Positions 12,650-51,484 of a stretch of 64,000 nucleotides of DNA are shown here, in pieces. This DNA comes from Acidimicrobiia bacterium (GTDB taxonomy: Bacteria > Actinomycetota > Acidimicrobiia > IMCC26256 > JACDBD01). How positions within the stretch are numbered: the stretch's first letter is position 1; the number at the start of each line of letters is the position of its first letter. A program made the position numbers and the translations under genes. Location: positions 5,340 to 69,339 of the forward strand of contig DASZGY010000023.1 of the NCBI GenBank assembly GCA_035938395.1, given 5' to 3'. The notes below the pieces were generated by a model. It did no database searches. It was not told the origin of the DNA and was given only the letters and a program-made list of their open reading frames with translations.

Positions 12650-12669
<20 letters not shown>
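11617..12669 (+). CDS. NAD-dependent epimerase/dehydratase (extended SDR)
   Basis: N-terminal AVTGASGLVGQRL glycine-rich NAD motif, then VSTAAVYG and a C-terminal hydrophobic tail. Confidence 0.8.
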
Positions 12670-13762
<1,093 letters not shown>

Positions 13763-13790
13763 CGTGCCGAGGTCGACCGCACCCGGCAAA

Positions 13791-14954
13791 TCACTGCGCG
13801 TTCCCGGGCTCGGCCGGGGCCGTGCCCGCGGTCGCGCTCGCATCCCGCTGGTCGCCGAGCTCGAGGCCCACTCGGCGCTGCCCGCGGTCGCGATACACCG
13901 TGACGTTGAGCTGCTCACCCGGCTTGCGCCGCCCGACCTCGCTCATCAGCTGGGAGACGCTCGAGATCGCAGTCGTCGAGCCGGCTTTCCCGACGTCGAC
14001 GATCACGTCGCCCTGCACGAGCCCCGCATTGTCGGCCGGGCCGCCGGGCACGACGCCCTGCACGCGTGCCCCGCCGCCGGTGCGGTCGGTGTCGTCGGTG
14101 GCCCAGACGCCGAGCCAGCCGTGCTCCGCGCTCCCGCGTGCAGTCAGCTGCGAGGCGACGTCGCGTGCCTGGTCGATCGGGAGCGCCAGACCCGCGGTGG
14201 AGGAGTCCGGCGGCACGACGAGGATGCCGACGACCTCGCCCCGGGTGTCGACGAGCGCGCCGCCCGAGTGCTCGCCGCTCGCGGTCATGTTCGTCTGAAT
14301 GAGACCGGCCACCGAGACGCCCCCGTCCGACACGAACGCTCGGTTGAACGATCCGATCTCGCCCACGTCGACCCAGCGGTGGCGTCCCGATTCGGACGCC
14401 GCCACGCCGACAACCTGCTGACCAGCCTCGAGGCCGGCCGACGCCCCGAGCTGCGCGGGTTGCATGCTCGTCCCGTCGACCGTCAGGACGGCGAGGTCGG
14501 AGACGGGGTCGCTGGCGTCCACGGCTGCCGGCAGCGTGCGGCCATCTGACGTGACGACCGCCACCGCGTCCGCGCCGTCGACGGCGTGCGCCGTCGTCAC
14601 GATCTGCCCCGCCTGCACGCAGACTCCCGACGCCCGTCCCGTCTCGTTGCCGCGCGCGGTCCGCACCGCGACCACGCTGGGCGCCAGGGTCGCCACCATC
14701 CTTTGGATCGCGCCGCTGCGCGCGCTCGGCGTGGGCCGGCTCGAGTTGTTGACGGTCATGAGCGCGACGACACCGGCGACGGCCGCGACCACGGTCAGGC
14801 CGGCGGCGAGCGCAACCCAGCGACCGCGTCGCGACGCCCGAGGCCGTGTCGTCGCGACGAACGACGTCATCTCGGTGGGGTGAACCCAGATCCGATCAGA
14901 CGGGTCGGGCGGCGGGCCGCCGGAACTCTCGTCCTCCGGCTCGTTGCCCGGCAT
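13791..14954 (-). CDS. HtrA-like trypsin-family serine protease with PDZ domain, membrane anchored
   Basis: ATG 14954 (MPGNEPED). TM segment WVALAAGLTVVAAVAGVVAL. Protease motifs TTAHAV, DLAVL and GEHSGGALV. C-terminal PDZ GLVQGDVIVDVG. Confidence 0.85.
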   Translation of the reverse strand: MPGNEPEDESSGGPPPDPSDRIWVHPTEMTSFVATTRPRASRRGRWVALAAGLTVVAAVAGVVALMTVNNSSRPTPSARSGAIQRMVATLAPSVVAVRTARGNETGRASGVCVQAGQIVTTAHAVDGADAVAVVTSDGRTLPAAVDASDPVSDLAVLTVDGTSMQPAQLGASAGLEAGQQVVGVAASESGRHRWVDVGEIGSFNRAFVSDGGVSVAGLIQTNMTASGEHSGGALVDTRGEVVGILVVPPDSSTAGLALPIDQARDVASQLTARGSAEHGWLGVWATDDTDRTGGGARVQGVVPGGPADNAGLVQGDVIVDVGKAGSTTAISSVSQLMSEVGRRKPGEQLNVTVYRDRGQRRVGLELGDQRDASATAGTAPAEPGNAQ

Positions 14955-15122: not shown

Positions 15123-15602
15123 GTGCTCGCGCCCCCTGACGGACGCGACTGGGTTGCCCTCACGTCGCTGCCGCTTCCCGCCGAAGCTGCCAACGCCTGG
15201 GTCACCACACCGGGCAGCGGCGCAGTCGTCTCCTTCGTCGGAGTCGTGCGCGAGCACTCCGAGGGCCGGACCGGTGTTCGGGGACTCACGTACGAGGCGT
15301 ACGAACAGGAGGCGACGCGCCGGCTCGCAGAGATCGCCGACGAGCTGCGGCGGCGCTGGCCCGATATCGAGCGCGTCGCGCTCCTGCACCGCGTCGGTGA
15401 TCTCGCGCTCTCCGAACCGTCCGTGATCGTGGTGGTCTCGGCGCCGCATCGCGCCGAGGCGTTCGAGGCGGCCCGGTTCGGCATCGACACGCTGAAGGAG
15501 ACCGTGCCCATCTGGAAGCGCGAACACTGGGACGACGGCTCCGAATGGGCCGAGCACGCCAGCCCCGTCCGCCCGGTCCGCCGGTCGACCAAGGCCGGGT
15601 GA
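15123..15602 (+). CDS. moaE: molybdopterin synthase catalytic subunit
   Basis: GAVVSFVGVVREHSEGR..V..LTYEAYE...ALLHRVGDL...EPSVIVVVSAPHRAEAFEAARFGIDTLKETVPIWKRE. The start is taken at GTG 15123, but the true start is uncertain. Confidence 0.85.
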   Translation: MLAPPDGRDWVALTSLPLPAEAANAWVTTPGSGAVVSFVGVVREHSEGRTGVRGLTYEAYEQEATRRLAEIADELRRRWPDIERVALLHRVGDLALSEPSVIVVVSAPHRAEAFEAARFGIDTLKETVPIWKREHWDDGSEWAEHASPVRPVRRSTKAG

Positions 15603-15608
15603 TCGGTC

Positions 15609-16616
15609 CTGGCCCGGGATCTCGCCATCGACCTGGGTACCGCCAACACGCTGGTCTATTCACGCGGCGAAGGCATCATCGTCAACGAGCCGACGGTCAT
15701 CGCGCTCAACAACCGCACCAACGAGGTGCTCGCGATCGGTCACGAGGCGTGGCAGATGATCGGCCGCACGCCCGGGTACATCGTCGCCGTCCGGCCCCTG
15801 CGCGGCGGCGCGATCACGGACTTCGAGATCACCGAACGTCTCCTCCGCATGCTCTTCCAGCGTGCGGGTGTGTCGCGCTTCTACCGGACGCGCGTGCTCA
15901 TCTGCGTGCCGTCGGCGATCACGCACGTCGAGCAGCGCGCTGTACTCGAGGCCGCCCGGCGCGCCGGCGCCGCTCAGACGTTCCTGATCGAGCAGCCGAT
16001 GGCCGCCGCCATCGGCGCGTCGCTGCCCATCCACGAGCCGCTCGGCAACATGATCGTCGACATCGGCGGCGGTACCTCCGAGGTCGCAGTCATCTCACTC
16101 GGTGGCGTCGTCGCTCTGGAGGCGGTTCGCGTCGGCGGGTTCGACATGGACGCCGCCATACAGGCCTACGTGCGGCGCGAGTACGGCGTGGCGATCGGCG
16201 AGCGCACGGGCGAAGAGATCAAGGTCGCGATCGGTTCGGCCTTTTCGACTGACGACCAGTACAAGGCCGAAGTACGCGGACGCGACCTGACGACCGGTAC
16301 CGCCAAGATCATCGTGCTGAGCCCGGAGGAGGTGCGCGAGGCGATCGACGAGCCAGTGCGCGCCATCCTCGAGATCATCGTGCGGGCGCTCGGGCAGACG
16401 CCGCCCGAGCTCGCGCAGGACCTCATCCACCAGGGCGTCCACCTCGTCGGCGGAGGCGGCATGCTGCGTGGCATGGACCACCGCATCTCGAAGGAGACGG
16501 CGCTGCCCGTCCACCTCGTGGACGCCCCCCTCGAATGCGTCGTGCACGGCGCCGGCCGTTGCCTCGAGAGCTTCGACAACCTCAAAGAGATGTTCATGGA
16601 CCGACCGCATTCGTAA
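15609..16616 (+). CDS. mreB: rod-shape-determining actin homologue MreB (start assigned to CTG)
   Basis: ARDLAIDLGTANTLVYSRGEGIIVNEPTVIAL...DIGGGTSEVAVISLGG...LVGGGGMLRG. The phosphate-1 motif DLGTANT lies upstream of the first ATG/GTG/TTG (15726). The frame opens directly after the in-frame moaE TGA (15600-15602). Confidence 0.9.
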   Translation: MARDLAIDLGTANTLVYSRGEGIIVNEPTVIALNNRTNEVLAIGHEAWQMIGRTPGYIVAVRPLRGGAITDFEITERLLRMLFQRAGVSRFYRTRVLICVPSAITHVEQRAVLEAARRAGAAQTFLIEQPMAAAIGASLPIHEPLGNMIVDIGGGTSEVAVISLGGVVALEAVRVGGFDMDAAIQAYVRREYGVAIGERTGEEIKVAIGSAFSTDDQYKAEVRGRDLTTGTAKIIVLSPEEVREAIDEPVRAILEIIVRALGQTPPELAQDLIHQGVHLVGGGGMLRGMDHRISKETALPVHLVDAPLECVVHGAGRCLESFDNLKEMFMDRPHS

Positions 16617-16645
16617 TCCTCGTGTGCAGCGCCGACGCCGGGCAC

Positions 16646-16716
16646 GCCGGCATCGGCCCCCACCCACCCACATGCCCGACGCCTCGCTGCGCTCTTCGCC
16701 GACGGCCGATGCCGGC
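16646..16716. repeat. 13-nt perfect inverted repeat between convergent mreB and HEAT genes
   Basis: GCCGGCATCGGCC (16646-16658) and GGCCGATGCCGGC (16704-16716), separated by 45 nt. Confidence 0.4.
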
Positions 16717-16734
16717 GACCCGTCGCCGTCGCCT

Positions 16735-17385
16735 TCATTCGGAAAGCAGGTCCTCGGCCGCCTGTCTCACTTGCCAGTCGCGGTCTTCGAGCGCGGTGCG
16801 TAATGCGTCGTCGACCTCGCCGCCGTCGAACGGCGCCAGCGCGAGGACGGCACGGCGGCGGACGGCGGGCTTGTCACGGCAGGCGGCGATGATGGCGGGA
16901 AGGCCGGCGGGGTCACCCAGGGCGCCGAGCGCCGCCACCGCAGCCTCGCGGGCGAGGGGGTCGTCGTGCATGCCCGCGACGGCGGCGAGCGCGGGGACCG
17001 CCCGGGCGCGCACTGCGGCGGCGCCGAGCTCGCCGAGCGCCCACGCGCTCGCTTCGATCACGGTGACGTCGTCGTCGCCGAGGAGCTTGAGCAGCGGTCG
17101 GGCGGGCGCGCCGAGCCCGGGGGCGAGGTCCGCGGCGCGCCGCCGCACGGCCGGCTCGGCGTCGGTCATCGCGATCCGCCACGCCGCGGTCGCCCGTCGC
17201 CGTCCGCCGGCCCGGGCGAGCGCGCCGAGCGCCGCCGCCCGCACACGCGGATCGGGATCATCCCGGGCGGCACGTTCGAGATCAGCGGGTGCACCGGCAG
17301 GGAGTCGGGCGCGCAGGCCGAGCGCGGCCGCGTCCGCGGCTCGTTCGACCGCTGTTCGCTGCTCGGCGCGGTCACGGGTGGGCAC
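16735..17385 (-). CDS. HEAT-repeat protein
   Basis: Repeated D..VR..AA.ALG.LG units (DPDPRVRAAALGALARAG, EPAVRRRAADL, DPLAREAAVAALGALGDP, DWQVRQAAEDLL). The start is taken at GTG 17385, and alternatives exist. Confidence 0.6.
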   Translation of the reverse strand: MPTRDRAEQRTAVERAADAAALGLRARLPAGAPADLERAARDDPDPRVRAAALGALARAGGRRRATAAWRIAMTDAEPAVRRRAADLAPGLGAPARPLLKLLGDDDVTVIEASAWALGELGAAAVRARAVPALAAVAGMHDDPLAREAAVAALGALGDPAGLPAIIAACRDKPAVRRRAVLALAPFDGGEVDDALRTALEDRDWQVRQAAEDLLSE

Positions 17386-17443
17386 GGCTAGACGATAGGG
17401 AGCCGCGACCGTTGGCCGGGGTGGTGCATGGCAGGCTCTGTCG

Positions 17444-18562
17444 ATGAACGAGGAGCGGCGCGAGCCCTTTCCGTCTCCGCCCCCGGCGATGCCGCCGTCG
17501 CGCCGGCGGCGCCCGCTCGTCGCTGCCGGCACGATCGCCGGCGTCGTGGCCGTGCTGCTGCTCCTCGCCGGCGCCCTGATCCGCCTGCCGTACGTGCTGA
17601 TCGCCCCGGGAGCGGCGAGCTCGGTGGATCGCGTCGTCAAGGTCACGGGCGCGCCGACGTACGCGCACCGCGGCCAGCTGCTGTTCCTCACGGTCTCCGT
17701 GTCGAGCGATCGCCCCAACGCGTTCGCGGTCCTGTCGGGCTGGCTGGACGACAACACCGACGTGGTTTCGGAGGATGAAGTGCTCCAGGGGCGCTCCCGC
17801 GCCGAGGACGCGCGGCTCAACAAGCTGGAGATGGCCGACTCGCAGATGACCGCCAAGCAGGTCGCGCTCGAGCGGCTCGGTTACACCGTTCCGGTGAGTG
17901 GGGCCGGCGCCGTCGTCACTGCGGTGCAGAAGCGCTCTCCGGCCGACGGCAAGCTCCGGGTCGGCGACGTCATCACCGAGGTGGACGGCCAACCGGTCAC
18001 GCTCGCCGAGCAGCTCGGGCCGATCGTGCGCAGCGGGCCCCCGGGGCAGCCGGTCGCGTTCACCGTGGATCGCGGCGGCAAGAGCATCCCGGTGACGGTC
18101 GTGAGCCGCGCCACGGCGCAAGGTGCCTGCCAGGGCCGCGCCCAAGTCGGCGTCTCGACCTCGACCCGCAGCGAGAAGTTCGACTTCCCGGTCAACGTCG
18201 CGATCGACACCGGCCGCGTGAGCGGCCCGTCGGCCGGGCTCGCGTTCACCCTCACGATCCTCGACGAACTCACTCCCGGCGACCTGACCGGCGGCAAGAA
18301 GGTGGCCGTGACCGGCACGATCCGTTCCGACGGCAGCGTGGGGCCCATCGGGGGCGCCCAGCAGAAAGCGGTGACGGCCCGCCGCGCGGGAGCGAAGCTG
18401 TTCCTCGTCCCGAGCGAGGAGGTCAAGGAAGCGCGCAGCCGCGCCGGCGGGATGAAGGTCGTGGGCATCGGGACCCTCGACGACGCCCTGCGGGAGCTGA
18501 AGAACTTCGGCGGCCAGGACGCCGGCGTGCCGCCCGCGTCACCCTCTACAGCCTGCCCTTAG
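17444..18562 (+). CDS. PDZ-domain S16 Lon-like protease (YlbL/SdrC type), membrane anchored
   Basis: N-terminal [38 protein letters not shown] and the Lon protease C-terminal domain with [16 protein letters not shown] and AVTGTI...VGPIGG..QK. Confidence 0.85.
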
Positions 18563-20517: not shown

Positions 20518-20572
20518 GCGCTTGACCGCGCGACCAAGAAGCTCGATACCCCGGCAGTAGGCTTCGCCACCG

Positions 20573-23689: not shown

Positions 23690-25099
23690 ATGGCTGTCAG
23701 CGGAATCGATCTCGGCAAGTACAAGCTCGGCTGGGCCGACAGCACGGACGACTACGCCTACATCCCGAAGAAGGGCCTGAACGAGGAGATCGTCCGCGAG
23801 ATCTCCGGGCAGAAGTCCGAGCCCGACTGGATGCGGGACTTCCGGCTGAAGTCGCTGAAGCGGTTCGAGCGCAAGCCGATGCTCGACTGGTTCGCCAAGA
23901 ACATGCCGACCATCGACTTCGACGACATCTACTACTACCTGAAGCCGACCGACAAGGGAGAGGTCGCCGACAGCTGGGACATGCTCCCCGAGTCGATGAA
24001 GGCCACGTACGAGAAGCTCGGCATCCCCGAGGCGGAGCGGAAGTATCTCGCGGGCGTCACGGCGCAGTTCGAGAGCGAGACCGTCTACCACAAGAACCGT
24101 GACGAGCTGGCCAAGCAGGGTGTCCTGTTCACCGACATGGACACCGCAGTGCGCGAGTACCCCGAGATCGTGCGCGAGCACTTCGCCACGGTCATCCCCC
24201 CGGGTGACAACAAGTTCGCCGCGCTCAACTCGACCGTGTGGTCGGGCGGCTCGTTCATCTACGTGCCGCCGGGCGTGCACGTCGAGATGCCGCTGCAGGC
24301 GTACTTCCGCATCAACGCCGAGAACGCGGGCCAGTTCGAGCGGACGCTGATCATCGCCGACGAGGGCGCTTCGGTGCACTACGTCGAGGGGTGCTCGGCG
24401 CCGATCTACACGGGCGACTCGCTGCACTCGGCCGTGGTGGAGCTCGTCGCCAAGCCCGGCGCGCGCATCCGGTACACGACCATCCAGAACTGGTCGCCGA
24501 ACGTCTACAACCTGGTCACGAAGCGGGCGAAGGCCGAGCGTGAGGCGACCGTCGAGTGGATCGACGGCAACATCGGTTCGAAGTTGACGATGAAGTACCC
24601 GTCGGTCGTGATGACGGGGCCGAAGGCCCACGGCGAGGTGCTGTCGGTGGCGTACGCCGGCGAAGGCATGCACCAGGACGCCGGCGCCAAGATGACCCAC
24701 GTCGCGCCCGACACCACGTCCATCATCGAGTCGAAGTCGATCTCGAAGGACGGCGGGCGCACGACCTACCGCGGCCTGGTGAAGGTCGAGGAGGGCGCGC
24801 ACAACGTGAAGAGCCACGTGCGCTGCGACGCGCTGATCCTCGACGAGGACAGCCGGTCCGACACCTACCCGTACATGGAGATCGAGGAGAAGGACGCCCG
24901 CATCGGGCACGAGGCCACGGTCTCGAAGGTCGGTGAGGACCAGATCTTCTACCTGATGAGCCGCGGGCTCAGCGAGCAGCAGGCGACGGCGATGATCGTG
25001 AACGGCTTCATCGAGCCGATCGTGAAGACGCTGCCGATGGAGTACGCCGTCGAGCTGAGCCGCCTGATCGAGCTCAACATGGAAGGAGCGGTTGGCTAA
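23690..25099 (+). CDS. sufB: Fe-S cluster assembly protein SufB
   Basis: 469 aa with typical SufB sequence throughout (FRLKSLKRFERKPM, SGGSFIYVPPGV, GCSAPIY, HEATVSKV..DQIFYLMSRGL). GGAGG lies 9 nt upstream of the ATG. Confidence 0.97.
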   Translation: MAVSGIDLGKYKLGWADSTDDYAYIPKKGLNEEIVREISGQKSEPDWMRDFRLKSLKRFERKPMLDWFAKNMPTIDFDDIYYYLKPTDKGEVADSWDMLPESMKATYEKLGIPEAERKYLAGVTAQFESETVYHKNRDELAKQGVLFTDMDTAVREYPEIVREHFATVIPPGDNKFAALNSTVWSGGSFIYVPPGVHVEMPLQAYFRINAENAGQFERTLIIADEGASVHYVEGCSAPIYTGDSLHSAVVELVAKPGARIRYTTIQNWSPNVYNLVTKRAKAEREATVEWIDGNIGSKLTMKYPSVVMTGPKAHGEVLSVAYAGEGMHQDAGAKMTHVAPDTTSIIESKSISKDGGRTTYRGLVKVEEGAHNVKSHVRCDALILDEDSRSDTYPYMEIEEKDARIGHEATVSKVGEDQIFYLMSRGLSEQQATAMIVNGFIEPIVKTLPMEYAVELSRLIELNMEGAVG

Positions 25100-25106
25100 C
25101 CGCTCC

Positions 25107-26405
25107 ATGACTGCGTTCACGCCTGAAGCCGCACGTGCGCTCGGCGGGCCGGACTGGCTCGTCGAGCGTCGTCTTGCTGCGGCCGAGCAGCTCGACGGGA
25201 TCACCTGGCCCACCGACGCCGAGGAGATCTGGCGCTACAGCCGGATCGGCGAGCTCGATCTCGATCGCTTCCGTCCGCCGTCGCGCGACGAGCTGGGCGA
25301 GCCCGGGCCGGAGCCGGCGCCGGGCGGCGGGCCGGTCGCGGCCGAGGCAGGCGAGCGCGCCGGCCTGGTGGTCGTGCGCAACGGGCGGGTCGTGCACCAC
25401 GAGCTCGACGACACGCTCGTCGCCAAGGGCGTCCTCGTCTGCGGCCTCGCCACGTGCGAGGAGGCCGACGTCGCGGCGGTGCTGGGGACGTGCTCGCAGG
25501 CTTCGCCCGACGCGTTCACCGTGCTGCACGACGCGTTCCTCGCCGGAGGCGCGTTCATCAAGGTCCCCGCCGGCGTCGTCGTCGACAAGCCGATCATCGT
25601 GCTGCACTGGTCCGAGGGCGAGGGCCTGGCGACGTTCCCGCACACGTTGGTCGCGGCCGAGGAGAGCTCCGAGGTCACCGTTGTCGACCGCTTCGGCTCA
25701 CCGGAGGTCGGCGGCGCCGGTCATCTCGTCGACGCCGTGGTCGAGCTCCTGGTCGGCGACAACGCCCGGCTCCGGTACCTGTCGGTCCAGGAACACGGGC
25801 CGCACACGTGGCAGGTCGCGCTGCAGCGCGCCCACGTCGGAAGAGACGCCTCCCTGCATTCGTCGGCCGTGGCGCTGGGCGGTGACTACGCGCGGCTGCG
25901 TAGCGAGTCGCTGCTCGCGGGCGACAACTCAGAGAGCGATCTCATGGCCGTCTACTTCGGCGACCATACGCAGATGCTCGACTTCCGCACCCTCCAGGAC
26001 CACGACGCCGCCGGCACGCGCAGTGACCTCCTGTTCAAGGGCGCGGTCGAGGATCAGGCCCATTCCGTCTACTCGGGCCTCATCCGGCTCCGTCCCAGCG
26101 CCCGGAAGGCCAACGCGAGCCAGACCAACCGCAACCTCGTGCTCACCGAGGGCGCGGGGGCCGAGTCGATCCCGAACCTCGAGATCGAGGCCAACGACGT
26201 GAGGTGCTCGCACGCGAGCGCCGTCGGCCCCATCGACGAGGACCAGCTCTACTACCTCGAGAGCCGCGGCGTGCCGCCGGCGGAGGCGGAGCGCCTGATC
26301 GTGCTCGGGTTCTTCGACGACGTGCTCGACCGGCTGCCGATCCCGACGCTCGCGCGCGCGCTCCGTCGCACCGTGGTCGAGAAGGTGGAGCACCGGCGTG
26401 GGTGA
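25107..26405 (+). CDS. sufD: Fe-S cluster assembly protein SufD
   Basis: Family features FKGAV.D.A.SVYSGLIRL, NRNLVLTEGA and IPNLEIEANDVRCSHASAVGPIDEDQLYYLESRG. ATG 25107 is used; the ORF track uses TTG 25092. Confidence 0.9.
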   Translation: MTAFTPEAARALGGPDWLVERRLAAAEQLDGITWPTDAEEIWRYSRIGELDLDRFRPPSRDELGEPGPEPAPGGGPVAAEAGERAGLVVVRNGRVVHHELDDTLVAKGVLVCGLATCEEADVAAVLGTCSQASPDAFTVLHDAFLAGGAFIKVPAGVVVDKPIIVLHWSEGEGLATFPHTLVAAEESSEVTVVDRFGSPEVGGAGHLVDAVVELLVGDNARLRYLSVQEHGPHTWQVALQRAHVGRDASLHSSAVALGGDYARLRSESLLAGDNSESDLMAVYFGDHTQMLDFRTLQDHDAAGTRSDLLFKGAVEDQAHSVYSGLIRLRPSARKANASQTNRNLVLTEGAGAESIPNLEIEANDVRCSHASAVGPIDEDQLYYLESRGVPPAEAERLIVLGFFDDVLDRLPIPTLARALRRTVVEKVEHRRG

Positions 26406-26712
26406 CCTCCGGGTGTGCTCGGTGAAGGACGTCGAAGCGGGCTCGGCCAAGCGGTTCGACGTCGACGGTCTGCGCCTGTGCGTGGTGCGCATCGGCGACG
26501 ACTTCTACGTCGTCGACGACACGTGCTCGCACGCCGACTACTCGCTGGCGGAGGGCGACGTGTGGGAGGACGAGCGCGAGATCGAGTGCCCGAAGCACGG
26601 CTCGACGTTCTCGCTCGAGACCGGGGAACCGGCCACCCTGCCTGCCACGCAGCCGGTGCGGGTGTACGACGTCAACATCGACGGCGACGACGTGGTGGTG
26701 ACGAACGCGTGA
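26398..26712 (+). CDS. Rieske [2Fe-2S] ferredoxin-like protein of the suf operon
   Basis: 104 aa with CSHADYSL ... CPKHGSTF, the Rieske CxH...CxxH ligands. It overlaps the sufD stop, and its own stop overlaps the sufC start. Confidence 0.9.
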   Translation: MGDLRVCSVKDVEAGSAKRFDVDGLRLCVVRIGDDFYVVDDTCSHADYSLAEGDVWEDEREIECPKHGSTFSLETGEPATLPATQPVRVYDVNIDGDDVVVTNA

Positions 26713-27536
26713 GCACGCTACGGATCGCCGGGTTGCGGGTTGCCGTCGACGGCCAGGAGATCTTGCGCGGCGTCGACCTCGAGATCGCCTCGGGCGATGT
26801 CCACGCCCTCATGGGTCCGAACGGCTCGGGGAAGTCGACGCTGGCGCACGCGCTCATGGGCCGCCCCGAGTACGAGATCCTCGGCGGCTCGGTCACGCTC
26901 GACGGTCAGGAGCTCCTGGGTCTGCCGACGTGGGAGCGCGCGGCCAACGGGTTGTTCCTCGCGATGCAGTACCCGGTTGAAGTGCCCGGCGTGCGGCTAG
27001 TCGACTTTCTTGCCGCCGCCATCCGTGGTCGCGGCGGGGAGCCGAACGGGTTGACGGACCGGCTCGCAAGCGAGGCGGAGCGCCTCGCCGTCGGCGACCA
27101 GTTCCTGACCCGCGGCATCAACGTCGAGTTTTCCGGCGGCGAGCAGAAGCGCGCCGAGACGCTCCAGCTCGCGGTCCTCGAGCCCAAGATCGCGGTGCTC
27201 GACGAGATCGACTCCGGCCTCGACGTCGATGCACTCCGGGACGTCGCCCGGCGGGTCGAGGCGATGACCGAGGAGAGCAGCCTCGGCGTGCTCGCCATCA
27301 CCCACTACGCCCGGCTGCTGAGCGAGCTGCGCGCCGACCGGGTGCACGTGCTCATGGCGGGACGCGTCGTCACGAGCGGCGGGCCCGAGCTCGCCGACGA
27401 GCTCGAACGGGTCGGCTACGAAGGCTTGGCCGCGGAGCTCGGCGTCGAAACGCTCGCGGTCGAGACCGCCCGCGAGCAGGAGCCCTTCACCGACACGACG
27501 ATCGAGTCGAACCCCTTCTCCGACCCCCTGGCGTAG
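26709..27536 (+). CDS. sufC: SufC-like Fe-S assembly ATPase, divergent paralogue with C-terminal extension
   Basis: GTG 26709 (GTGA overlap). Walker A GPNGSGKST, signature FSGGEQKR, Walker B AVLDEIDSGLD and H-loop ITHY. An extra ~35-aa acidic tail follows (GLAAELGVETLAVETAREQEPFTDTTIESNPFSDPLA). Confidence 0.9.
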   Translation: MSTLRIAGLRVAVDGQEILRGVDLEIASGDVHALMGPNGSGKSTLAHALMGRPEYEILGGSVTLDGQELLGLPTWERAANGLFLAMQYPVEVPGVRLVDFLAAAIRGRGGEPNGLTDRLASEAERLAVGDQFLTRGINVEFSGGEQKRAETLQLAVLEPKIAVLDEIDSGLDVDALRDVARRVEAMTEESSLGVLAITHYARLLSELRADRVHVLMAGRVVTSGGPELADELERVGYEGLAAELGVETLAVETAREQEPFTDTTIESNPFSDPLA

Positions 27537-27549: not shown

Positions 27550-28479
27550 CTACGCGTGCTGGCCCGGCGGCGGGATGGGGTCGGGCATCGTCGGTGGCTG
27601 CGGGCTGGGCGCGAGCGGCGTCGATGAGGTCACGTTGGCGGGCTTACCGCCGAACACGTGCACGGGATCGCCGCGGTTCACGAGCGTGTGGAAGTACTCG
27701 GCGATGTGCATCGGGATGCGTACGCAGCCGTGGGACGCGGGTGTGGTCGGCACCGAGTCGTAGCCGTGCACCGCGATGCCCTTGTTGAAGTAGAACGGGT
27801 TGTACAGCTGGCCGAGCGGTGACTTGTCCCAACCCGGGCGGAACTCGGTATAGGTGAAGTCGCCGGAGGGCGTATTGGCGTCCTCGCACACGTGACTGGT
27901 CGGGTTCTCACGAGGCGTGTCGTAGCAATAGTTCTCACCCGAGCCGGACGACATGGTCGTGATCAGCTTGGGCTGGTAGTTCTCGTAGAGCGTCAGGGTC
28001 TGCCCGGTGATGTCGACCTCGGTGCGGTTCGGCTCCGGCGTCGCGGCCATCGGTTGCTTGTACTGGAAGAAGTTGAGCGAGAACACGTCGGCGTCGGTGA
28101 TGCGACCGGTCGGGGCCGCGCCCCCGAGCTTCTGGAGCGTCTGCACCGCATAGGCGGTCTTCTGGTCGTAGATGCCGTCGACCGGGCCGGGATCGAAGTG
28201 GATGTCGGCCATCCGCTGCTCGTACGCCTGCACCTCCGGCCCTTGGGAGCCGGGGCCCACCACTCCGCCCGGCACCGGGGGGAGTGCTGCCCACGGCGGC
28301 TGGATGATCGTCGTGGGCGGTGGGGCCGCGGTCGTCGGCGCCGGAGCAGCGGTCGTCGTGGGCGCGGCGGTGGTGGGCGTCGGCGCGGCGCGCTTCGTGG
28401 TCTTTTCGTCGCGCAGCGCCGAACCGGCGACGGCGATGCCCGAGACGAAGAGCGCCGCGACCACCAACGAGACGAGCAC
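27550..28479 (-). CDS. L,D-transpeptidase (YkuD) with peptidoglycan-binding domain
   Basis: N-terminal TM, a Thr/Pro/Ala linker, a PG_binding-like segment (GPEVQAYEQRMADIHFDPGPVDGIYDQKTAYAVQTLQK) and the catalytic motif HGYDSVPTTPASHGCVRIP. Confidence 0.85.
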   Translation of the reverse strand: MLVSLVVAALFVSGIAVAGSALRDEKTTKRAAPTPTTAAPTTTAAPAPTTAAPPPTTIIQPPWAALPPVPGGVVGPGSQGPEVQAYEQRMADIHFDPGPVDGIYDQKTAYAVQTLQKLGGAAPTGRITDADVFSLNFFQYKQPMAATPEPNRTEVDITGQTLTLYENYQPKLITTMSSGSGENYCYDTPRENPTSHVCEDANTPSGDFTYTEFRPGWDKSPLGQLYNPFYFNKGIAVHGYDSVPTTPASHGCVRIPMHIAEYFHTLVNRGDPVHVFGGKPANVTSSTPLAPSPQPPTMPDPIPPPGQHA

Positions 28480-28610
28480 GGGGAGTCGGAAAACCTGCCT
28501 CAGGGCTTGCTCCTGTCGACGCTCGGAACTGCGAACTGTACCGGGGCGGTCACACCGGCCGGTGCCACCTGGCCTGCGGACGCCCGGCCCCGCCGGGCGC
28601 CCCGCTCAAA

Positions 28611-28628
28611 CTTGACCGTGCGGTCAAG
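28611..28628. promoter_or_regulatory. 18-bp palindrome CTTGACCG-TG-CGGTCAAG overlapping a candidate promoter (operator candidate)
   Basis: Perfect 8-nt arms. TTGACC (28612-28617), a 16-nt spacer and TAGGGT (28634-28639) form a plausible -35/-10 pair, with the palindrome ending 46 nt upstream of the LLM start (GTG 28675). A near-identical copy sits at 51511-51528. Confidence 0.55.
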
Positions 28629-28674
28629 GGTAATAGGGTGACCTCCGATCCAGGAGCCGGACCGGGGGGTCGCC

Positions 28675-29844
28675 GTGCGGTTCTTCTCGTTCCACCTCAT
28701 GCCGTACACGCAGCTGTCGCCCGACTACGACGGCCCCGCCTGGGTCACGTGCCCGAACGAGCTGTACGACCCGCAGGTCGGGAACGAGCTGTACAACACC
28801 TATCTCGACGAGCTCATCTACGCCGAGGAAGTCGGGTTCGACGGCGTCTGTGTGAACGAGCATCACCAGAACGCCTACGGCAACATGCCGTCGCCGAACC
28901 TGATCGCTTCGATTCTGGCCCGCCAGACGAGCCGCATCCGGATCGCCGTCGTCGGCAATGCCCTGCCGCTCTACGACCCGCCGACGCGGGTCGCCGAGGA
29001 GTTCGCCATGATCGACGTGATCAGCGGCGGGCGCCTGATCGCGGGCATGGTCGTCGGCGGAGGCCCGGAGTACTACTCGTTCTCGGTCAACCCGGCGCAC
29101 GCCCGGGAGCGCTTCCAGGAGGCGCACGACCTCATCACGAAGGCGTGGACCACACCGGGCCCCTTCGAGTGGGTGAGCAAGCACTACCGCATCCGGTACG
29201 TCAACCCCTGGCCGCGTCCGATCCAGCAGCCGCATCCGGAGATCTGGATCCCGGGGGCGGGATCCATCGAGACGATGGAGTTCGTCGCCCGCAACCACTA
29301 CGCCTACATGGGCATCCCGTACTTCCACCTCGACGTGTTCAAGCGGTACTTCTCGATGTTCCGGGAGGCGTGCGAGTCCGAGGGCTACGAGGCGGATCCG
29401 CTGCAAGCCGGTTGGCTGGTGCCGATCTACGTGGCCGAGACCGACGAGCAGGCCCGGCGCGAGTACGAGGAGCACCTCTGGTACTTCGTCAAGCGCCTGT
29501 TGCCGGGGATCACGATCCAGCCGCCCGGGTACACGTCGGTGCGATCCCTCGGCAGCATCCTGAAGTCGGCGGGGTCGTTCATGCTCAACGTCGAGACGTG
29601 GGATCAGATCGTCGACGGCCGCTACGCGATCGTCGGCTCGCCCGAGACCGTCACGGAGCAGCTCGTCGACGCCCTGAGCGCGCTGGGGACGGGCAACCTG
29701 CTCGGCCTGTTCCAGCTCGGAAGCCTGCCCGACCACCTCACGCGCAAGAACATGGCGCTGTTCGCCGAGCAGGTCATGCCGAAGCTGCGGGCCGAGTTCC
29801 CCGAGGGCAAACCGGTGCACCGCCCGCAGGCCGCGGTGGCGTAG
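28675..29844 (+). CDS. LLM-class (luciferase-like) flavin-dependent oxidoreductase
   Basis: MRFFSFHLMPY, FDGVCVNEHHQNAYGNMPSPN and VISGGRLIAGMV; the C-terminal part is typical of large LLM proteins. Confidence 0.85.
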   Translation: MRFFSFHLMPYTQLSPDYDGPAWVTCPNELYDPQVGNELYNTYLDELIYAEEVGFDGVCVNEHHQNAYGNMPSPNLIASILARQTSRIRIAVVGNALPLYDPPTRVAEEFAMIDVISGGRLIAGMVVGGGPEYYSFSVNPAHARERFQEAHDLITKAWTTPGPFEWVSKHYRIRYVNPWPRPIQQPHPEIWIPGAGSIETMEFVARNHYAYMGIPYFHLDVFKRYFSMFREACESEGYEADPLQAGWLVPIYVAETDEQARREYEEHLWYFVKRLLPGITIQPPGYTSVRSLGSILKSAGSFMLNVETWDQIVDGRYAIVGSPETVTEQLVDALSALGTGNLLGLFQLGSLPDHLTRKNMALFAEQVMPKLRAEFPEGKPVHRPQAAVA

Positions 29845-29849
29845 CCGCC

Positions 29850-30668
29850 ATGCCGCAGACACTGACCGAGGAGCGTGTCGACGCGCCCATCGGCAAGATC
29901 CAGGTGTTCCGGGCCGGCGCCGGCGACCCGCTGGTCTACCTGCACTCGGCCGGTGGCGAACCGACGAACCCCGCGCTCGAAGACCTCGCCGACTCGTTCG
30001 CCGTGATGGTGCCGGTGTTCCCCGGCTACGGGGAGTCGGAGGGCATCGACCAGATCGACAGCATGGAGGACGCCGTCTTCCACCTGCTCGACATGTGGGA
30101 GCTGCTCGGCGTCGACGCTCCGATCGTCGTCGGCCTGTCGCTGGGCGGGTGGATGGCGATGGAGCTCGCGACCCGTTACCCGGAGCGTGTCGGGAAGATG
30201 GTGCTCGTGAACCCGGTCGGCATCTACATCGATGACGTGCCGATGGCGGAGATGTTCGGCCGCACACCGGCCGAGCTCGCCGAGATGCTGTTCGCCGATC
30301 AGTCGCACCCCATCGCACAGGCGATGCACGCGATGGCGGAGTTCACCGGTGACGTCGGGCGTCAGGTCGAGATCCCGATCGAGATGGTGCTGCCGATGTG
30401 GAAGGCGATCAGCGCCACCGCCAAGCTCGGCTGGGACCCGTACCTCCATAACCCGAAGCTGCGCGGCCGCCTGCGCCGCATCACCGCGCCAACTCTGGTG
30501 GTCGCCGGCGCGCAGGACGGGCTCGTGCCCCCGATCTACGCCGAGACGTTCGCGGCCGAGATCCCCGACGCGCGCCTCGAGGTCATCGACGGTGCCGCCC
30601 ACTGGCTGCCGTTCGAGAAGCCCGCCGAGCTCGCCGCGCTGGTCCGGGAGTTCGCCACCTCCCGGTGA
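29850..30668 (+). CDS. alpha/beta hydrolase
   Basis: ATG 29850 within ORF 28320..30668. Nucleophile elbow VGLSLGGWMA, then LVVAGAQDGLVP and GAAHWLPFEKP. Confidence 0.85.
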   Translation: MPQTLTEERVDAPIGKIQVFRAGAGDPLVYLHSAGGEPTNPALEDLADSFAVMVPVFPGYGESEGIDQIDSMEDAVFHLLDMWELLGVDAPIVVGLSLGGWMAMELATRYPERVGKMVLVNPVGIYIDDVPMAEMFGRTPAELAEMLFADQSHPIAQAMHAMAEFTGDVGRQVEIPIEMVLPMWKAISATAKLGWDPYLHNPKLRGRLRRITAPTLVVAGAQDGLVPPIYAETFAAEIPDARLEVIDGAAHWLPFEKPAELAALVREFATSR

Positions 30669-31321
30669 CGACGGTGCGGCGGGTGATCGACCGTCTCGTT
30701 CGCGATGGGAGTGCGGTCGCGCGTTCCGACGGGACAGTGCACACCCTGTTCCCGGTCGCCGCGAGCCCCTCCGAGGGGGAAGCACTACGGAACTGGGTGG
30801 TGCGCGAACGCGCCGCTCGAACGATCGAAGTCGGCCTTGGATACGGAATCTCGGCCCTGTTCATCTGCGAGGGCCTTCTCACGAACGGCGCCGCCGGTTC
30901 GCGTCATGTCGCCATGGACCCGCACCAAGGCACGAGGTTCGCCAATTGCGGCTCGCAGTTCCTCGACGAAGCCGGCGTTGCGGACATGGTGGAGTTCCAC
31001 AACGGCGAGTCGCAGCTCGTTCTTCCTCGCCTGCTCGAGGACGGCCGTCGCTTCGATCTCGCCTTCGTCGACGGGAACCATCGCTTCGACGGCGTCTTCG
31101 TCGACCTCGTCTATCTCGGTCGGCTCATCCGTCCGGGAGGGGTCGTCTTCGTGGACGACTATCAGCTGCCCGCCGTGGCGCGCGCAGCTTCCTTCTTCGT
31201 GGCGAACGTCGGATGGACAGTCGCGCAGGTGTCACCCGCCGACGAGTTGCACCAGTGGGCCGTTCTCCGGACGTCCACCGTGGCGGACACGCGACGCTTC
31301 GACGACTTCGTGGACTTCTGA
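30665..31321 (+). CDS. class I SAM-dependent O-methyltransferase (Methyltransf_24-like)
   Basis: GTG 30665 (GTGA overlap). Motifs IEVGLGYGISALF, FDLAFVDGNHRFDGVFVD and LIRPGGVVFVDD. Confidence 0.8.
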   Translation: MTTVRRVIDRLVRDGSAVARSDGTVHTLFPVAASPSEGEALRNWVVRERAARTIEVGLGYGISALFICEGLLTNGAAGSRHVAMDPHQGTRFANCGSQFLDEAGVADMVEFHNGESQLVLPRLLEDGRRFDLAFVDGNHRFDGVFVDLVYLGRLIRPGGVVFVDDYQLPAVARAASFFVANVGWTVAQVSPADELHQWAVLRTSTVADTRRFDDFVDF

Positions 31322-33021: not shown

Positions 33022-33513
33022 CTAGGCGTCGACCGACTCGCGTTCGTCGAGACCTTGCTGGAGGGTGTTCCAGGCGAGGGTCGCGCACTTGATGCGCACC
33101 GGGAACTTGACGACGCCCTGTAGCGCTTCGAGGTCGCCGAGGCGCACGCCTTCGAGCTCGGCGGTGAGGTCCGAGCCGTCGCTCTCGCCCTCGAGCTTCG
33201 ACTCGTGGATGGACATCAGCGCCTTGAAGGCGCGGATGAGCTTGCGGGCCTCGTCGACCGGCTTTCCCTTCACCGCCGCGCTCATCATCGACGTCGACGC
33301 CTGACTGATCGAGCATCCCTGCCCGTCGATCTTGACGTCGCGGACGGTCTCGGTATCGGGATCGATGTCGAGGTAGAGGACGACCTCGTCGCCGCACAGC
33401 GGATTGAAGCCCTCGGCCTTGGTGGCCGGGGGGACCGGGAGGTCGCCGCGGTTCCGGGGCGAGCGGTAGTGGTCGAGGATGATCTCGCGGTAGAGGTCTT
33501 CGAGGCCGGGCAT
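33022..33513 (-). CDS. sufU: SufU-type Fe-S cluster scaffold/sulfur acceptor
   Basis: LYREIILDHYRSPRN, NPLCGDEV, DGQGCSISQAS and KCATLAWNTL. Confidence 0.93.
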   Translation of the reverse strand: MPGLEDLYREIILDHYRSPRNRGDLPVPPATKAEGFNPLCGDEVVLYLDIDPDTETVRDVKIDGQGCSISQASTSMMSAAVKGKPVDEARKLIRAFKALMSIHESKLEGESDGSDLTAELEGVRLGDLEALQGVVKFPVRIKCATLAWNTLQQGLDERESVDA

Positions 33514-33528
33514 CGGGGGGACTCCGTT

Positions 33529-34767
33529 CTAGATGGCGAAGAATTTCTCGGCCTTGGCCAACGACTCGACGAGTGCGTCGGCGTCACTCTCGTCGTTGTA
33601 CACGTAGAGCGAGGCGCGGGTGGTGGCGGGCACACCGAGCACCCGCATCAGAGGTTTCGCACAGTGGTGTGACGCCCGCACGCACACGCCGTCCTCGTCG
33701 AGCACCTGGGCGACGTCGTGGGCGTGAATGCGGTCGAACAGGAACGAGATCGCGCCGCCGCGCTGATCGACGTCGCGGGGGCCGTGAACGTGCAGGCGGT
33801 TCTCGAAGCGCTCCTCGAGCGCCCGGAGCGTGTACTCGGTGAGCTGCTTCTCGTGGGCGCGGACCGCGTCCATTCCGAGCGCCGAGAGGTAGTCGATAGC
33901 GGCGGCGAGCCCGCTGGCCTCGACGAACGGCATGGTCCCGGCCTCGAACTTCCAGGGCACCTCGTTGGGCTCGAAGCCGTCGAAGCGCACATCGGTGATC
34001 ATCTCGCCGCCGCCGAGGAAGGGCGGCATCGCGTCGAGCAGCTCGGCGCGGGCCCAGAGGCCGCCGAGACCGGTCGGGCCGAGCATCTTGTGGCCGGTGA
34101 AGCCGACGAAGTCGGCGTCCCACGCCTGCACGTCGACCGGGAGGTGGGGGACGGCCTGGGCGGCGTCCACGTTCACGAGGGCGCCGGCGGCGTGGGCGGC
34201 GTCGGACAGCAATCGGATGTCGTTCAGCGTCCCGAGCACGTTCGACATGGCCGTGACCGACAGGAGCTTCGCCCCGTCCAGCAGCCGGTCGAGGTCGGTG
34301 AGGTCGAGCTGGAAGTCGTCCGTGATCGGGATCCAGCGCAGCTCGACGCCGCGCTCCTCGACGAGGATGTGCCACGGCACGACGTTGGCGTGGTGCTCCA
34401 TCTCGGTGATGACCACCGCATCGCCCGGCCCGAGGTTCTTTCGGGCCCAGGAGTACGCGACGAGGTTCATCGCCTCGGTGATGTTCTTCGTGAACACGAT
34501 CTCGCTGGTGGCGCGCGCGTTGAGCAGCTTGGCCACCTTGGCGCGGGCGCCCTCGTAGGCGGCGGTCGACTCCTCGGCGATCGTGTAGATGCCGCGGTGC
34601 ACGTTCGCGTAGTGGTGGCGGTGGTGGTGCTCCATGGCGTCGAGCACCGAGCGCGGCTTCTGGGACGACGACGCCGAGTCGAGATACACGAGCGGCTTGC
34701 CGTTGACCTTGCGCTCGAAGATCGGGAAGTCGGCCTTGACGCGGCTGACGTCGAGGACCTCGGTCAT
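33529..34767 (-). CDS. sufS: cysteine desulfurase SufS (group II)
   Basis: FPIFERKVNGKPLVYLDSASSSQKP, HRG.Y, FTGHKMLGPTG (PLP lysine) and RASHHCAKP (catalytic Cys loop). The ATG overlaps the upstream sufC stop (ATGA). Confidence 0.95.
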   Translation of the reverse strand: MTEVLDVSRVKADFPIFERKVNGKPLVYLDSASSSQKPRSVLDAMEHHHRHHYANVHRGIYTIAEESTAAYEGARAKVAKLLNARATSEIVFTKNITEAMNLVAYSWARKNLGPGDAVVITEMEHHANVVPWHILVEERGVELRWIPITDDFQLDLTDLDRLLDGAKLLSVTAMSNVLGTLNDIRLLSDAAHAAGALVNVDAAQAVPHLPVDVQAWDADFVGFTGHKMLGPTGLGGLWARAELLDAMPPFLGGGEMITDVRFDGFEPNEVPWKFEAGTMPFVEASGLAAAIDYLSALGMDAVRAHEKQLTEYTLRALEERFENRLHVHGPRDVDQRGGAISFLFDRIHAHDVAQVLDEDGVCVRASHHCAKPLMRVLGVPATTRASLYVYNDESDADALVESLAKAEKFFAI

Positions 34768-35543
34768 CCCCCCACCTCCGCGGTGCGGAAGGCGTCGAAG
34801 CCTTCGCCCTCGAGGCGGTCGGCGAGCTCGCGGCCGCCCGAGGCGACGATGCGCCCGCCGAGCAGGATGTGGACGGCGTCGGGCGTGAGGTGCTCGAGAA
34901 TCCGCCGGTAGTGCGTGATGAGCAGGATCCCGAGCTGCGGTCGCGCCGAGCGGACCGCTTCGATGCCGCGGGCCACGACACCGAGCGCGTCGATGTCGAG
35001 ACCGGAGTCGGTCTCGTCGAGCACGGCGAAATCGGGCTCCATCAGCGCCATCTGGAGGATCTCGTTCCGCTTCTTCTCACCGCCGGAGAACCCCTCGTTG
35101 AGGTACCGGTCGATGAACCGTGTGTCCATGCCCAGCCGACCGGCCCACTCGATGACCGCCATGCGGACCTCGAGCACCGAGAAGTCGTCGATGCCCTTCC
35201 GGGCCGACAGCGCCTGGCGGAGGAAGTTCAGCACGCTCACCCCGGGGATCTCCTCGGGGTGTTGAAAGCCGAGGAAGAGCCCCCGGCTGGCGCGCTCGTT
35301 CGTCGACAGGCCGGTGATGTCCTCGCCCTCGAAGCGGATCCGGCCCGCCGTCACGTCGTAGGCGGGATTGCCGAGGAGCGTCGCCGCCAGCGTCGACTTG
35401 CCCGATCCGTTCGGGCCCATGAGGGCGTGCAGTTCGCCCGCAGGCACGGCGAGGGACACTCCCTGCAGAATCTCCTTGCCCTCGACCGCGACGTGGAGAT
35501 CGTCGATCTCGAGCGCGGGGCCGGGGTTCGAATCCGAGGCCAT
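34764..35543 (-). CDS. sufC: SufC Fe-S assembly ATPase, canonical-looking paralogue
   Basis: GPNGSGKSTLA, LNEGFSGGEKKRNEILQ, AVLDETDSGLDIDAL and ITHY. Confidence 0.93.
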   Translation of the reverse strand: MASDSNPGPALEIDDLHVAVEGKEILQGVSLAVPAGELHALMGPNGSGKSTLAATLLGNPAYDVTAGRIRFEGEDITGLSTNERASRGLFLGFQHPEEIPGVSVLNFLRQALSARKGIDDFSVLEVRMAVIEWAGRLGMDTRFIDRYLNEGFSGGEKKRNEILQMALMEPDFAVLDETDSGLDIDALGVVARGIEAVRSARPQLGILLITHYRRILEHLTPDAVHILLGGRIVASGGRELADRLEGEGFDAFRTAEVGG

Positions 35544-50306: not shown

Positions 50307-50801
50307 TCAGTTGCTGACGGTGATCGCGCAGCTCGCCATCCCGCGCTTCTCGAGGTAGCGCTGGTGGTAGTCCTCGGCCGGCCAGAACTCGGAGGCGGCC
50401 GTGATCTCGGTGACGATCGGCCGCTTGAACCGAGCCTGCGCGGCTTCCTTCGACGCCTTCGCCGCGACTTCCTGCTCGGGCGACTGGAAGAAGATCGCCG
50501 AGCGGTACTGGTCGCCGACGTCGGGGCCCTGCCGGTTGAGCTGGGTCGGGTCGTGGAGCTGCCAGAAGGCGTCGAGCAGCTGGTCGTAGGTCACCTGGGC
50601 GGGGTCGTACTCGACGAGCACCGCCTCGGCGTGGCCGGTCGTATGGCTGCAGACCTGCTCGTAGCTCGGGTGGTCCGTGCGACCGCCGGTGTAGCCCACG
50701 GTCGTCGCGATCACGCCCGGGATCTGCCGGAACTCGGCCTCGACTCCCCAGAAGCATCCGGCCGCGAAGGTCGCCTTCTCAGTGTGCTGTGTGTCCGTCA
50801 T
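50307..50801 (-). CDS. msrA: peptide-methionine (S)-S-oxide reductase
   Basis: ATG 50801. Motifs [24 protein letters not shown] and [11 protein letters not shown]. Confidence 0.95.
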
Positions 50802-50872
50802 GTCCCTTTTCGCCCCGTCGTGTCGTCGTCTGGTCACTCCAGTGAACACCCGGGCCCGGGGGTTGTTCCGTC

Positions 50873-51484
50873 CTACCAACCGCGGTCGATCCACTCCTGG
50901 AGGTGCGGTCGCTCGGTGTCGAGGGTCGTGTCGAGGCCGTGGCCAGGGAGCACGAGCAGGTCGTCGGGGAGCGAGAACAGGCGCCGGTCGATCGACTCGA
51001 TGATCTGGTCGAAGTCGCCGCCCGGGAGGCTCGTGTTCCCGGGCCCGCCCGGGAACAGGGTGTCGCCGCTGAACAGCACGGGGTGGCCCTCGAGCAGGAA
51101 ACACGTCGACCCGGCCGTGTGTCCGGGCGTGTGGATCGTCCGCAGCCGCAGATCACCGACCTCGATCACGTCGCCGTCGGGGATCGTGAAGTCGTACGCC
51201 GGCAGCATCGACGCGTCCTCGGGCGCGATCCCGACGTCGATGCCAGCGTCGCGCACCGCCTCGACGGCCTGGATGTGGTCCCAGTGCCCGTGGGTGGTGA
51301 GGACACGCCGCACGCCTGTAGCCCGGCTCACATCCAGGAGCAGCTCGTGCTCGTTGGCGGCGTCGAGCAGGGTCGCCGCCCCGGTGCCCTTGCTCCGGAG
51401 GATGAACACGTTGTTCTCGAACGGCCCGACCGTGAGCTTGTCGATCCGGGCGTCCGTGTCCTCGTAGTGAGGGGGCCGCGGCAC
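50873..51484 (-). CDS. MBL-fold metallo-hydrolase (glyoxalase II-like)
   Basis: [28 protein letters not shown] and LPGHG. GTG 51484 lies 6 nt downstream of TAGCCT, so the transcript is a leaderless candidate. Confidence 0.88.

Follow-up and report, generated by a model that had tools for sequence, protein, structure and literature searches.

A conserved palindromic site in Acidimicrobiia and its probable repressor, a putatively autoregulated TetR-family protein

Autoregulation is the rule among TetR repressors. KstR2 of Mycobacterium tuberculosis (Rv3557c; 4W1U, 4W97) is an actinobacterial example, which represses catabolic genes rich in acyl-CoA dehydrogenases (ACADs), senses a CoA thioester and has the operator AnCAAGnnCTTGnT. 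FadR of Sulfolobus acidocaldarius (Saci_1107; 6EL2, 6EN8) is likewise an autoregulated TetR repressor, acting on lipid and fatty-acid genes through a 16-bp dyad operator and released by acyl-CoA (PMC6449355); FadR of Thermus thermophilus (TTHA0101) binds TTRNACYNRGTNYAA (PMC5597230); and DarR, whose co-repressors are cyclic nucleotides, occupies ATACT-N4-AGTAT as a dimer of dimers and makes its base contacts through a Lys-Gly pair (PMC10636190). Here we describe two near-identical palindromes, O1 and O2, in a 64-kb stretch of DNA from an Acidimicrobiia bacterium (the whole stretch analysed, hereafter the window; G+C ~69%, with proteins closest to those of metagenome-assembled genomes (MAGs) of Acidimicrobiales). 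We consider it about 80% probable, from sequence comparison, that both palindromes are operators of one autoregulated TetR repressor encoded outside the window. This repressor is predicted to be FadR/KstR2-like, combining TetR_N with TetR_C_24, which we take to be a KstR2-type domain, and to be encoded by a core gene of the Acidimicrobiia.

The window reads AACTTGACCGTGCGGTCAAG at 28609-28628, inside which CTTGACCGTGCGGTCAAG (28611-28628) forms a perfect 8+2+8 palindrome, and AACTTGACCGAGCGGTCCAG at 51509-51528, where the palindrome CTTGACCGAGCGGTCCAG (51511-51528) has one right-arm mismatch (GGTCCAG):

28611-28628, no strand assigned: putative operator O1, perfect 18-bp palindrome CTTGACCG-TG-CGGTCAAG
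51511-51528, no strand assigned: putative operator O2, CTTGACCG-AG-CGGTCCAG, 7 of 8 arm pairs

An earlier note on this DNA had placed the two 20-mers at these positions with 2 of 20 positions different, and we find the same positions and the same count; the 8-nt arms around a 2-nt centre that it described are perfect at O1, whereas at O2 only seven of the eight arm pairs form. By Pfam annotation, O1 is flanked by a YkuD gene on the minus strand and by genes for an LLM oxidoreductase, an alpha/beta hydrolase and a methyltransferase running on the plus strand, and O2 fills most of a 59-nt gap between an MBL hydrolase gene (minus) and two ACAD genes (plus). When up to two mismatches are allowed, TTGACCGNNCGGTCAA matches the whole window three times against 0.24 expected, a count that none of 100 dinucleotide-preserving shuffles reached, and the 18-mer with up to three mismatches matches four times against 0.63 expected. 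The presence of O1 and O2 in two divergent promoter regions is far above chance expectation. The third match, with two mismatches, was considered as a weak operator and rejected: its spot is not kept in close relatives (93-94% DNA identity, found via an identical SufB), which read CCTGACCGCGCGACCGAG there or carry an indel, and we therefore regard it as a chance resemblance.

20521-20538, no strand assigned: look-alike outside the system, CTTGACCGCGCGACCAAG, in a 55-nt gap, 35 nt before a UPF0182 gene

Evidence for the assignment to a TetR repressor comes from the promoter of the candidate regulator in related genomes. TetR genes adjoin the site in two contigs (L094:4486-5091 and L183:7243-7827; 56.5% mutual identity), both encoding TetR_N (E = 2e-18 and 4e-15) plus TetR_C_24 in Pfam, and a perfect site lies 21-22 nt before each start codon. 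Four more orthologues, picked by protein similarity alone (P0142, P0214, P0190, P0152), each have CTTGACCGnnCGGTCAAG, with one mismatch at most, 20-23 nt ahead of the start codon; the interval from TTGACC to TACGTT or TACCGT is 17-18 nt, and this hexamer precedes the start by 6-10 nt. The operator is hence found in the gene's own promoter in six of six independent TetR orthologues, and this recurrence ~20 nt before the start codon argues that the TetR would be autoregulated. A regulator gene carrying the site in its own promoter is what the earlier note had proposed to look for, and this TetR (TetR_N + TetR_C_24) answers to that description.

The candidate is 195-205 aa long, and at E <= 1e-20 its family numbers over 2,400 proteins, the majority of them from MAGs of Acidimicrobiales and Actinomycetota. 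Its gene shares a synteny of ribonucleotide reductase, glycerol kinase, PlsC-like acyltransferase, TetR, aminotransferase, LLM and ROK kinase genes, and therefore appears to be one orthologous core gene of the Acidimicrobiia. Across 32 orthologues the recognition-helix segment PTSVAxIVxGxxVGKGVFYWYF does not vary, which matches the expectation from an invariant operator; the AlphaFold model (pLDDT 93.8) has nine helices. Within the window, Pfam finds no TetR, GntR or MarR protein among all sizeable open reading frames (ORFs), and the candidate's profile reaches a best E of 1.5 against the six frames, in agreement with the earlier statement that no regulator gene is present there. Small ORFs at 53890-54333, 56607-56876, 57252-57572 and 57751-58167, considered as hidden regulators, have no family match. 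An AsnC-type helix-turn-helix (HTH) protein (12650-13918) was also considered as the regulator and set aside, as it is a NirD/L-like siroheme decarboxylase.

Both sites are conserved in relatives, upstream of the orthologous operons, where the motif had been expected if the operator was real. For O1, we compared 80 metagenome loci encoding LLM relatives and three loci (93-94% DNA identity) reached via SufB, and the site recurs in 12 loci whose LLM orthologues are 74-98% identical in protein sequence: before the LLM gene it has no mismatch in L001, L015, L221 and L222, one in L002, L003, L004, L007, L011, L074 and L220, and two in L032. Across these loci the arms are kept, and the central 2-4 bases and the flanks vary. 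O2 is kept in 11 ACAD loci, with 54-95% identity of the first ACAD (ACAD1). It is identical, its own mismatch included, in ten loci with differing intergenic flanks (ACAD1 95% identical in L209-L213 and 85% in L214-L218), and L040 (ACAD1 54% identical) has a perfect TTGACCGATCGGTCAA in the same MBL/ACAD gap. Among 23 sites, wherever the inner right arm has changed (from CGG to TGG, CAG or GGG), the left arm shows no matching change, so the conservation is one of sequence and not of structure; such conservation combined with dyad symmetry reads as the signature of a dimeric-protein site.

Several LLM promoters of related lineages differ. In L005, L050, L073, L013, L014 and L069 (LLM 84-92% identical) the -10 element CATTAGGGTGAG is kept and there is no palindrome, so the LLM operon has apparently joined or dropped out of the regulon within this order. 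In L018:2041, L023:7928, L025:7920 and L076 (LLM 76-81% identity), CTTGACCGnnCGGTCAAG is replaced at the same promoter position by the palindrome-like AAACTGAYTCGTCAGTCAGT, which precedes a TACCAT or TACGAT -10 and has the core TGAC...GTCA in common with it. Finally, TACCGTCCGGTAA, with the core ACCGnnCGGT but without the TTG/CAA ends, stands just before the LLM start in L066 and ~30 nt before ACAD1 in L219 (10001), two lineages without the 18-mer. Both AAACTGAYTCGTCAGTCAGT and TACCGTCCGGTAA may be either a diverged operator or the site of another regulator.

An exact TTGACCGNNCGGTCAA scan of one genome per species returned at least 120 loci. Among the matches listed, to which the counts in this paragraph apply, 43 loci (44 sites) are of Acidimicrobiia type: 35 are so named (Acidimicrobiia, Acidimicrobiales, Microthrixaceae, Iamia, Ilumatobacteraceae or similar) and eight are unclassified high-G+C Actinomycetota MAGs. 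For a class that probably accounts for just a few per cent of species, the proportion is high. Immediately next to the searched pattern, C stands in 71 of 88 Acidimicrobiia-type half-sites versus 46 of 156 in other taxa, and both flanks extend the palindrome in 28/44 sites versus 10/78 (Fisher p = 1e-8); the true element is therefore the 18-mer CTTGACCG-NN-CGGTCAAG, with no centre preference. Some 35 of the 44 Acidimicrobiia-type sites fall between genes, most of them within 3-50 nt of a start codon. Facing the sites are 57 genes, which, summarised by Pfam for families with at least two members, include 5 ACADs, 4 thiolases, 5 LLM proteins, 5 alpha/beta hydrolases, 3 MBL proteins, 3 GT4 glycosyltransferases, 3 galactokinase-like kinases, 2 AMP-binding ligases, 2 SDR proteins and 2 TetRs; individual cases include a thiolase and a fused ACAD, an MMPL transporter whose gene diverges from that of a hydrolase, an MFS transporter and a flavin monooxygenase. 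A search for the regulon, proposed earlier for the genome and run here across species genomes, thus finds the site recurring at ACAD, thiolase and LLM genes, and the two window operons probably belong to a regulon that extends across the lineage and has a lipid and acyl-CoA character.

Three further occurrences are worth recording. In a Mycobacterium sp. MAG (L129:3417), the 16-mer separates an unrelated TetR gene from one for a haloalkane-dehalogenase-like hydrolase, and in the alphaproteobacterium Falsiroseomonas bella it occurs twice, 39 bp apart (L090:1238 and 1277); other TetR subfamilies may have converged on this half-site. Behind the site in L189 (562-3545) are genes that read, in translation, as alcohol-dehydrogenase-like and aldo-keto-reductase-like, followed by a TetR paralogue 32% identical to the main candidate, which could be a second, local regulator nested in the regulon.

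The sites overlap predicted core promoters, whose hexamers we read as follows:

28612-28617, plus strand: putative -35 of the LLM operon, TTGACC, inside the left arm of O1, read from the sequence
28634-28639, plus strand: putative -10 of the LLM operon, TAGGGT, 16 nt after TTGACC
51529-51534, plus strand: putative -10 of the ACAD genes, TACCGT, abutting O2, 9 nt before the ATG; conserved in L209-L218
51491-51496, minus strand: putative -10 of the MBL gene, TAGCCT, 6 nt before the GTG start; relatives have TACCCT there

At O1, the hexamers and spacing (TTGACC, 16 nt, TAGGGT) are those that the earlier note had given. The actinobacterial -10 pattern is TANNNT, and a geometry of TTGACC, 17-18 nt and TAnnnT recurs at the TetR genes of relatives, which are also served by the hexamer TACCGT or TACGTT. 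The -10 hexamer is kept in LLM orthologues with the palindrome and, as CATTAGGGTGAG, in the six loci without it; it therefore appears to mark the -10, with the palindrome as a separable element. The position of the palindrome relative to the -10 at O2 and at many other targets differs from that at O1. At the ACAD genes the palindrome ends directly at the -10, so the TTGACC of O2 cannot be their -35, and the distance of 9 nt from this -10 to the ATG suggests a leaderless-type transcript. On the other side, O2 covers the place expected for the -35 of the MBL gene.

These placements lead us to propose the following mechanism. A TetR homodimer would read the two 8-bp arms, CTTGACCG and CGGTCAAG, with 2 unconstrained bp between them, as dyad symmetry and the family suggest. 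The operator would lie over the -35 and spacer at the LLM operon and the TetR gene, fill the spacer up to the -10 at the ACAD genes, and cover the -35 area at MBL-msrA; because it overlaps core promoters in this way, a bound repressor would keep RNA polymerase off, and the TetR would limit its own synthesis. Release would be brought about by an acyl-CoA or a related CoA thioester, as the solved relatives and the genes at the sites suggest. This release step is the weakest, given the mixed regulon and DarR-type signalling as an alternative, and we would put a CoA-thioester inducer, if the TetR operator reading holds, at even or slightly better than even odds. The earlier note had envisaged a dimeric HTH operator of TetR/GntR type, a regulator encoded outside the window and occlusion of the promoter, a picture to which the sites at six of six TetR genes lend support and in which occlusion would follow from the promoter overlap.

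The genes that these two sites would control are arranged as follows:

28675-31321, plus strand: target operon 1, LLM flavin oxidoreductase (28675-29844), alpha/beta hydrolase (29844-30668) and methyltransferase (30665-31321), by Pfam
27550-28479, minus strand: YkuD L,D-transpeptidase gene, divergent, 132 nt from O1, by Pfam
51544-54333, plus strand: target operon 2, acyl-CoA dehydrogenases (51544-52734 and 52744-53874) and a 147-aa ORF (53890-54333), by Pfam and NCBIfam
50307-51484, minus strand: divergent target of O2, MBL-fold hydrolase (50873-51484; GloB-like, below cut-off), then msrA (50307-50801)

In target operon 1, the pairing of LLM and alpha/beta hydrolase genes is kept in 38 related loci, and NCBIfam assigns none of the three proteins to a family at its curated cut-off. 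In L220 (ERZ25039487 contig_27792), the closest long contig with 796 kb and 94% identity, gene calling gives a single 664-aa product for LLM and alpha/beta hydrolase (15457-17451); the fusion may be genuine, or it may come from a frameshift or an assembly error. The YkuD gene, found at the same place in L001-L004, L015 and L221-L222, is a possible but unproven second target of O1. A YkuD gene also stands next to TetR in L201, and we considered whether it signals a duplicated promoter; as it is only 26-42% identical to the two YkuD genes of the window, the shared neighbour gives no sign of such a duplication. The acyl-CoA dehydrogenases of target operon 2 resemble PimC/PimD and IpdE2 in NCBIfam, under the curated cut-offs, and the gene order of this operon is kept in L209-L218. 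Its 147-aa ORF has no Pfam or NCBIfam match but lies directly behind the ACAD pair in 10 of 10 of these related loci, so we take it to be an uncharacterised member of the operon. The msrA gene (peptide methionine sulfoxide reductase) begins 71 nt downstream of the MBL gene and the MBL-PMSR pair is kept in the same ten loci; msrA would therefore share the control of O2.

Two observations concern the suf genes of the window. In at least 22 contigs that match the window in DNA at only 93-94%, L220-L227 among them, SufB (23690-25099, plus strand) is 100% identical, which indicates very strong purifying selection. The window also has two separate suf sets, one of sufB, sufD, a Rieske gene and sufC (23690-27536) and one of sufC, sufS and nifU (33022-35543).

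We weighed four other explanations of the sites. TTGACC, 16-18 nt and TAnnnT make a plausible promoter at O1 and at the TetR genes, so that TTGACC might be a -35 and the rest chance or the common ancestry of two promoters. The earlier note had itself raised a -35 hexamer with chance flanks, and this very improbable reading is already contradicted: the right arm is kept although it lies in the spacer, where promoters show no conservation, and the centre varies; O2 ends at the -10, so that its TTGACC is no -35; many other targets have the site 3-20 nt from the start codon; orthologues without the palindrome keep the -10; and the C...G extension is enriched only in Acidimicrobiia. It is likewise contradicted, and extremely improbable, that the palindrome acts as a nucleic-acid hairpin, be it a terminator, RNA element or REP-like repeat, instead of a protein site. 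As single-stranded DNA, O1 can form a hairpin of 7 bp (-5.9 kcal/mol, z = -3.6), but O2 folds weakly (-3.0 kcal/mol, z = -1.7), neither site is followed by a T-run, and a terminator scan calls nothing at O1 or O2. Nor does Rfam match anything in the whole window, compensatory changes are absent from the 23 sites, and the sites lie in divergent promoter regions upstream of the predicted transcription starts.

Other alternatives accept a protein site and differ on the protein or its signal. The site might belong to another transcription factor, of a different HTH family or a TetR paralogue, with the conserved TetR merely a member of the regulon. The assignment of regulator to site is one of guilt by association; TetR paralogues occur near sites, inside the operon behind the site in L189 and ~1.7 kb from a site in L200; the 16-mer also stands in the promoter of the unrelated TetR of the Mycobacterium MAG, so that the sequence is shared beyond a single subfamily; and a lone regulator of another family could escape a Pfam summary of families with at least two members. 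We nevertheless hold this to be improbable, because all six orthologues have the site at a fixed distance, four of them having been chosen blind to the motif, because the recognition helix is invariant and the motif and the TetR family have the same taxonomic range, and because TetR repressors are as a rule autoregulated, Sulfolobus FadR being one example (PMC6449355). A more serious doubt concerns the signal: with the same TetR and operator, the effector could be a cyclic-nucleotide co-repressor, as for DarR, or a small molecule of the LLM/hydrolase/methyltransferase operon. DarR has the same K-G pair in its recognition helix, many regulon genes lie outside beta-oxidation, and the TetR_C_24 match is modest (E = 1e-6 to 2e-8); however, CoA thioesters are the ligands of most of the closest relatives with solved structures (Sulfolobus FadR, KstR2, B. 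subtilis FadR, FasR and AibR; PMC6449355), and ACADs, thiolases and acyl-CoA ligases are recurrent targets, and we regard a signal other than acyl-CoA as possible but on the unlikely side. Bolder, and a long shot in our estimation, is the idea that the TetR is a class-wide master regulator of the Acidimicrobiia whose signal is a cyclic nucleotide or a product of the very highly conserved LLM/hydrolase/methyltransferase operon; if true, it would tie lipid catabolism, MMPL-type export, envelope glycosyltransferases and methionine-sulfoxide repair into one unseen stress/envelope regulon.

Several points weigh against the reading that we prefer, a single autoregulated TetR repressor at both sites. 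Each mechanistic step is one that we infer, and the candidate TetR is known from relatives, with none in the 64-kb window of the source genome. An E. coli-type consensus promoter scan calls no promoter at O1 or O2, and we base the -10 assignments on conservation and on TANNNT, the less strict actinobacterial pattern. The operator is missing in L005 (92% LLM identity), L219 (80% ACAD1 identity) and L035, and as it has been lost in some fairly close orthologues, membership of the regulon would be labile between lineages. The regulon, as sampled among the matches listed, is not purely one of beta-oxidation: LLM, MBL, GT4 and galactokinase-like genes are as frequent as ACADs at the sites, so that with such a mixed regulon the effector could be other than a fatty acyl-CoA.

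Metagenomes from soil, freshwater and the sea are rich in Acidimicrobiia, hardly any of which have been cultured. Literature searches with the motif string, with FadP/LiuR-type motifs and for an Acidimicrobiia TetR regulon returned no prior description of this operator or of any Acidimicrobiia regulon. What is gained here is an 18-bp operator, CTTGACCG-NN-CGGTCAAG, a very probable repressor with its orthologous family and synteny, and a first list of targets. Together, operator and family would let co-regulated lipid and acyl-CoA genes be predicted in thousands of MAGs, and they offer a compact repressor-operator pair with an invariant recognition helix that is suited to in vitro testing.

How the candidate relates to known regulators can be judged from both sequence and fold. 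A sequence search against solved structures returned, in order, S. acidocaldarius FadR, KstR2, a Thermobifida TetR, PfmR, a Clostridium fatty-acid regulator, DarR and B. subtilis FadR (E-values: 6EL2 8e-17 over residues 7-175, KstR2 6e-12, PfmR 7e-11, B. subtilis FadR 5e-8), and Foldseek with the AlphaFold model placed the same set on top, with TM-scores of 0.75-0.83. The NCBIfam FasR and FadR models match the candidate far below their cut-offs, so it would be the equivalog of no named regulator.

S. acidocaldarius FadR, the best sequence relative, has the same fold (TM 0.74-0.82), and the likeness of its operator to ours is one of dyad geometry (16-bp), not of a base-by-base comparison; it is, however, archaeal and ~21% identical to the candidate, and it has four sites in its own 30-kb cluster where here there are many scattered loci. 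KstR2, the second-best solved relative and among the top fold matches, has an operator of another sequence, and we saw no steroid-ring degradation genes next to the sites. B. subtilis FadR (YsiA; 3WHB, 3WHC) has the same fold with the highest TM-score, 0.83. DarR of mycobacteria and Rhodococcus (8SUK, 8SVA) also has this fold and has the Lys-Gly pair of its recognition helix in common with the candidate, but its operator is unrelated in sequence to the site here, where there is no sign of a second overlapping palindrome.

Thermus FadR and PfmR (3VPR) are TetR-type regulators, the former of fatty-acid genes and the latter of phenylacetate and fatty-acid genes, PfmR being a top sequence and fold relative of the candidate. 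The Thermus FadR operator TTRNACYNRGTNYAA resembles TTGACCGnnCGGTCAA of our sites in the outer TTG..AC / GT..CAA, but it is a 15-mer with an odd, single-base centre and another inner half-site; the sites here, TTGACCG-NN-CGGTCAA, are 16- to 18-mers with a 2-bp centre and an invariant ACCG/CGGT, and fall outside that operator class. Given this difference in length and core, the two are therefore not interchangeable by sequence. The mechanism that we propose is a textbook TetR/FadR switch, and it extends known biology to a new lineage without changing it.

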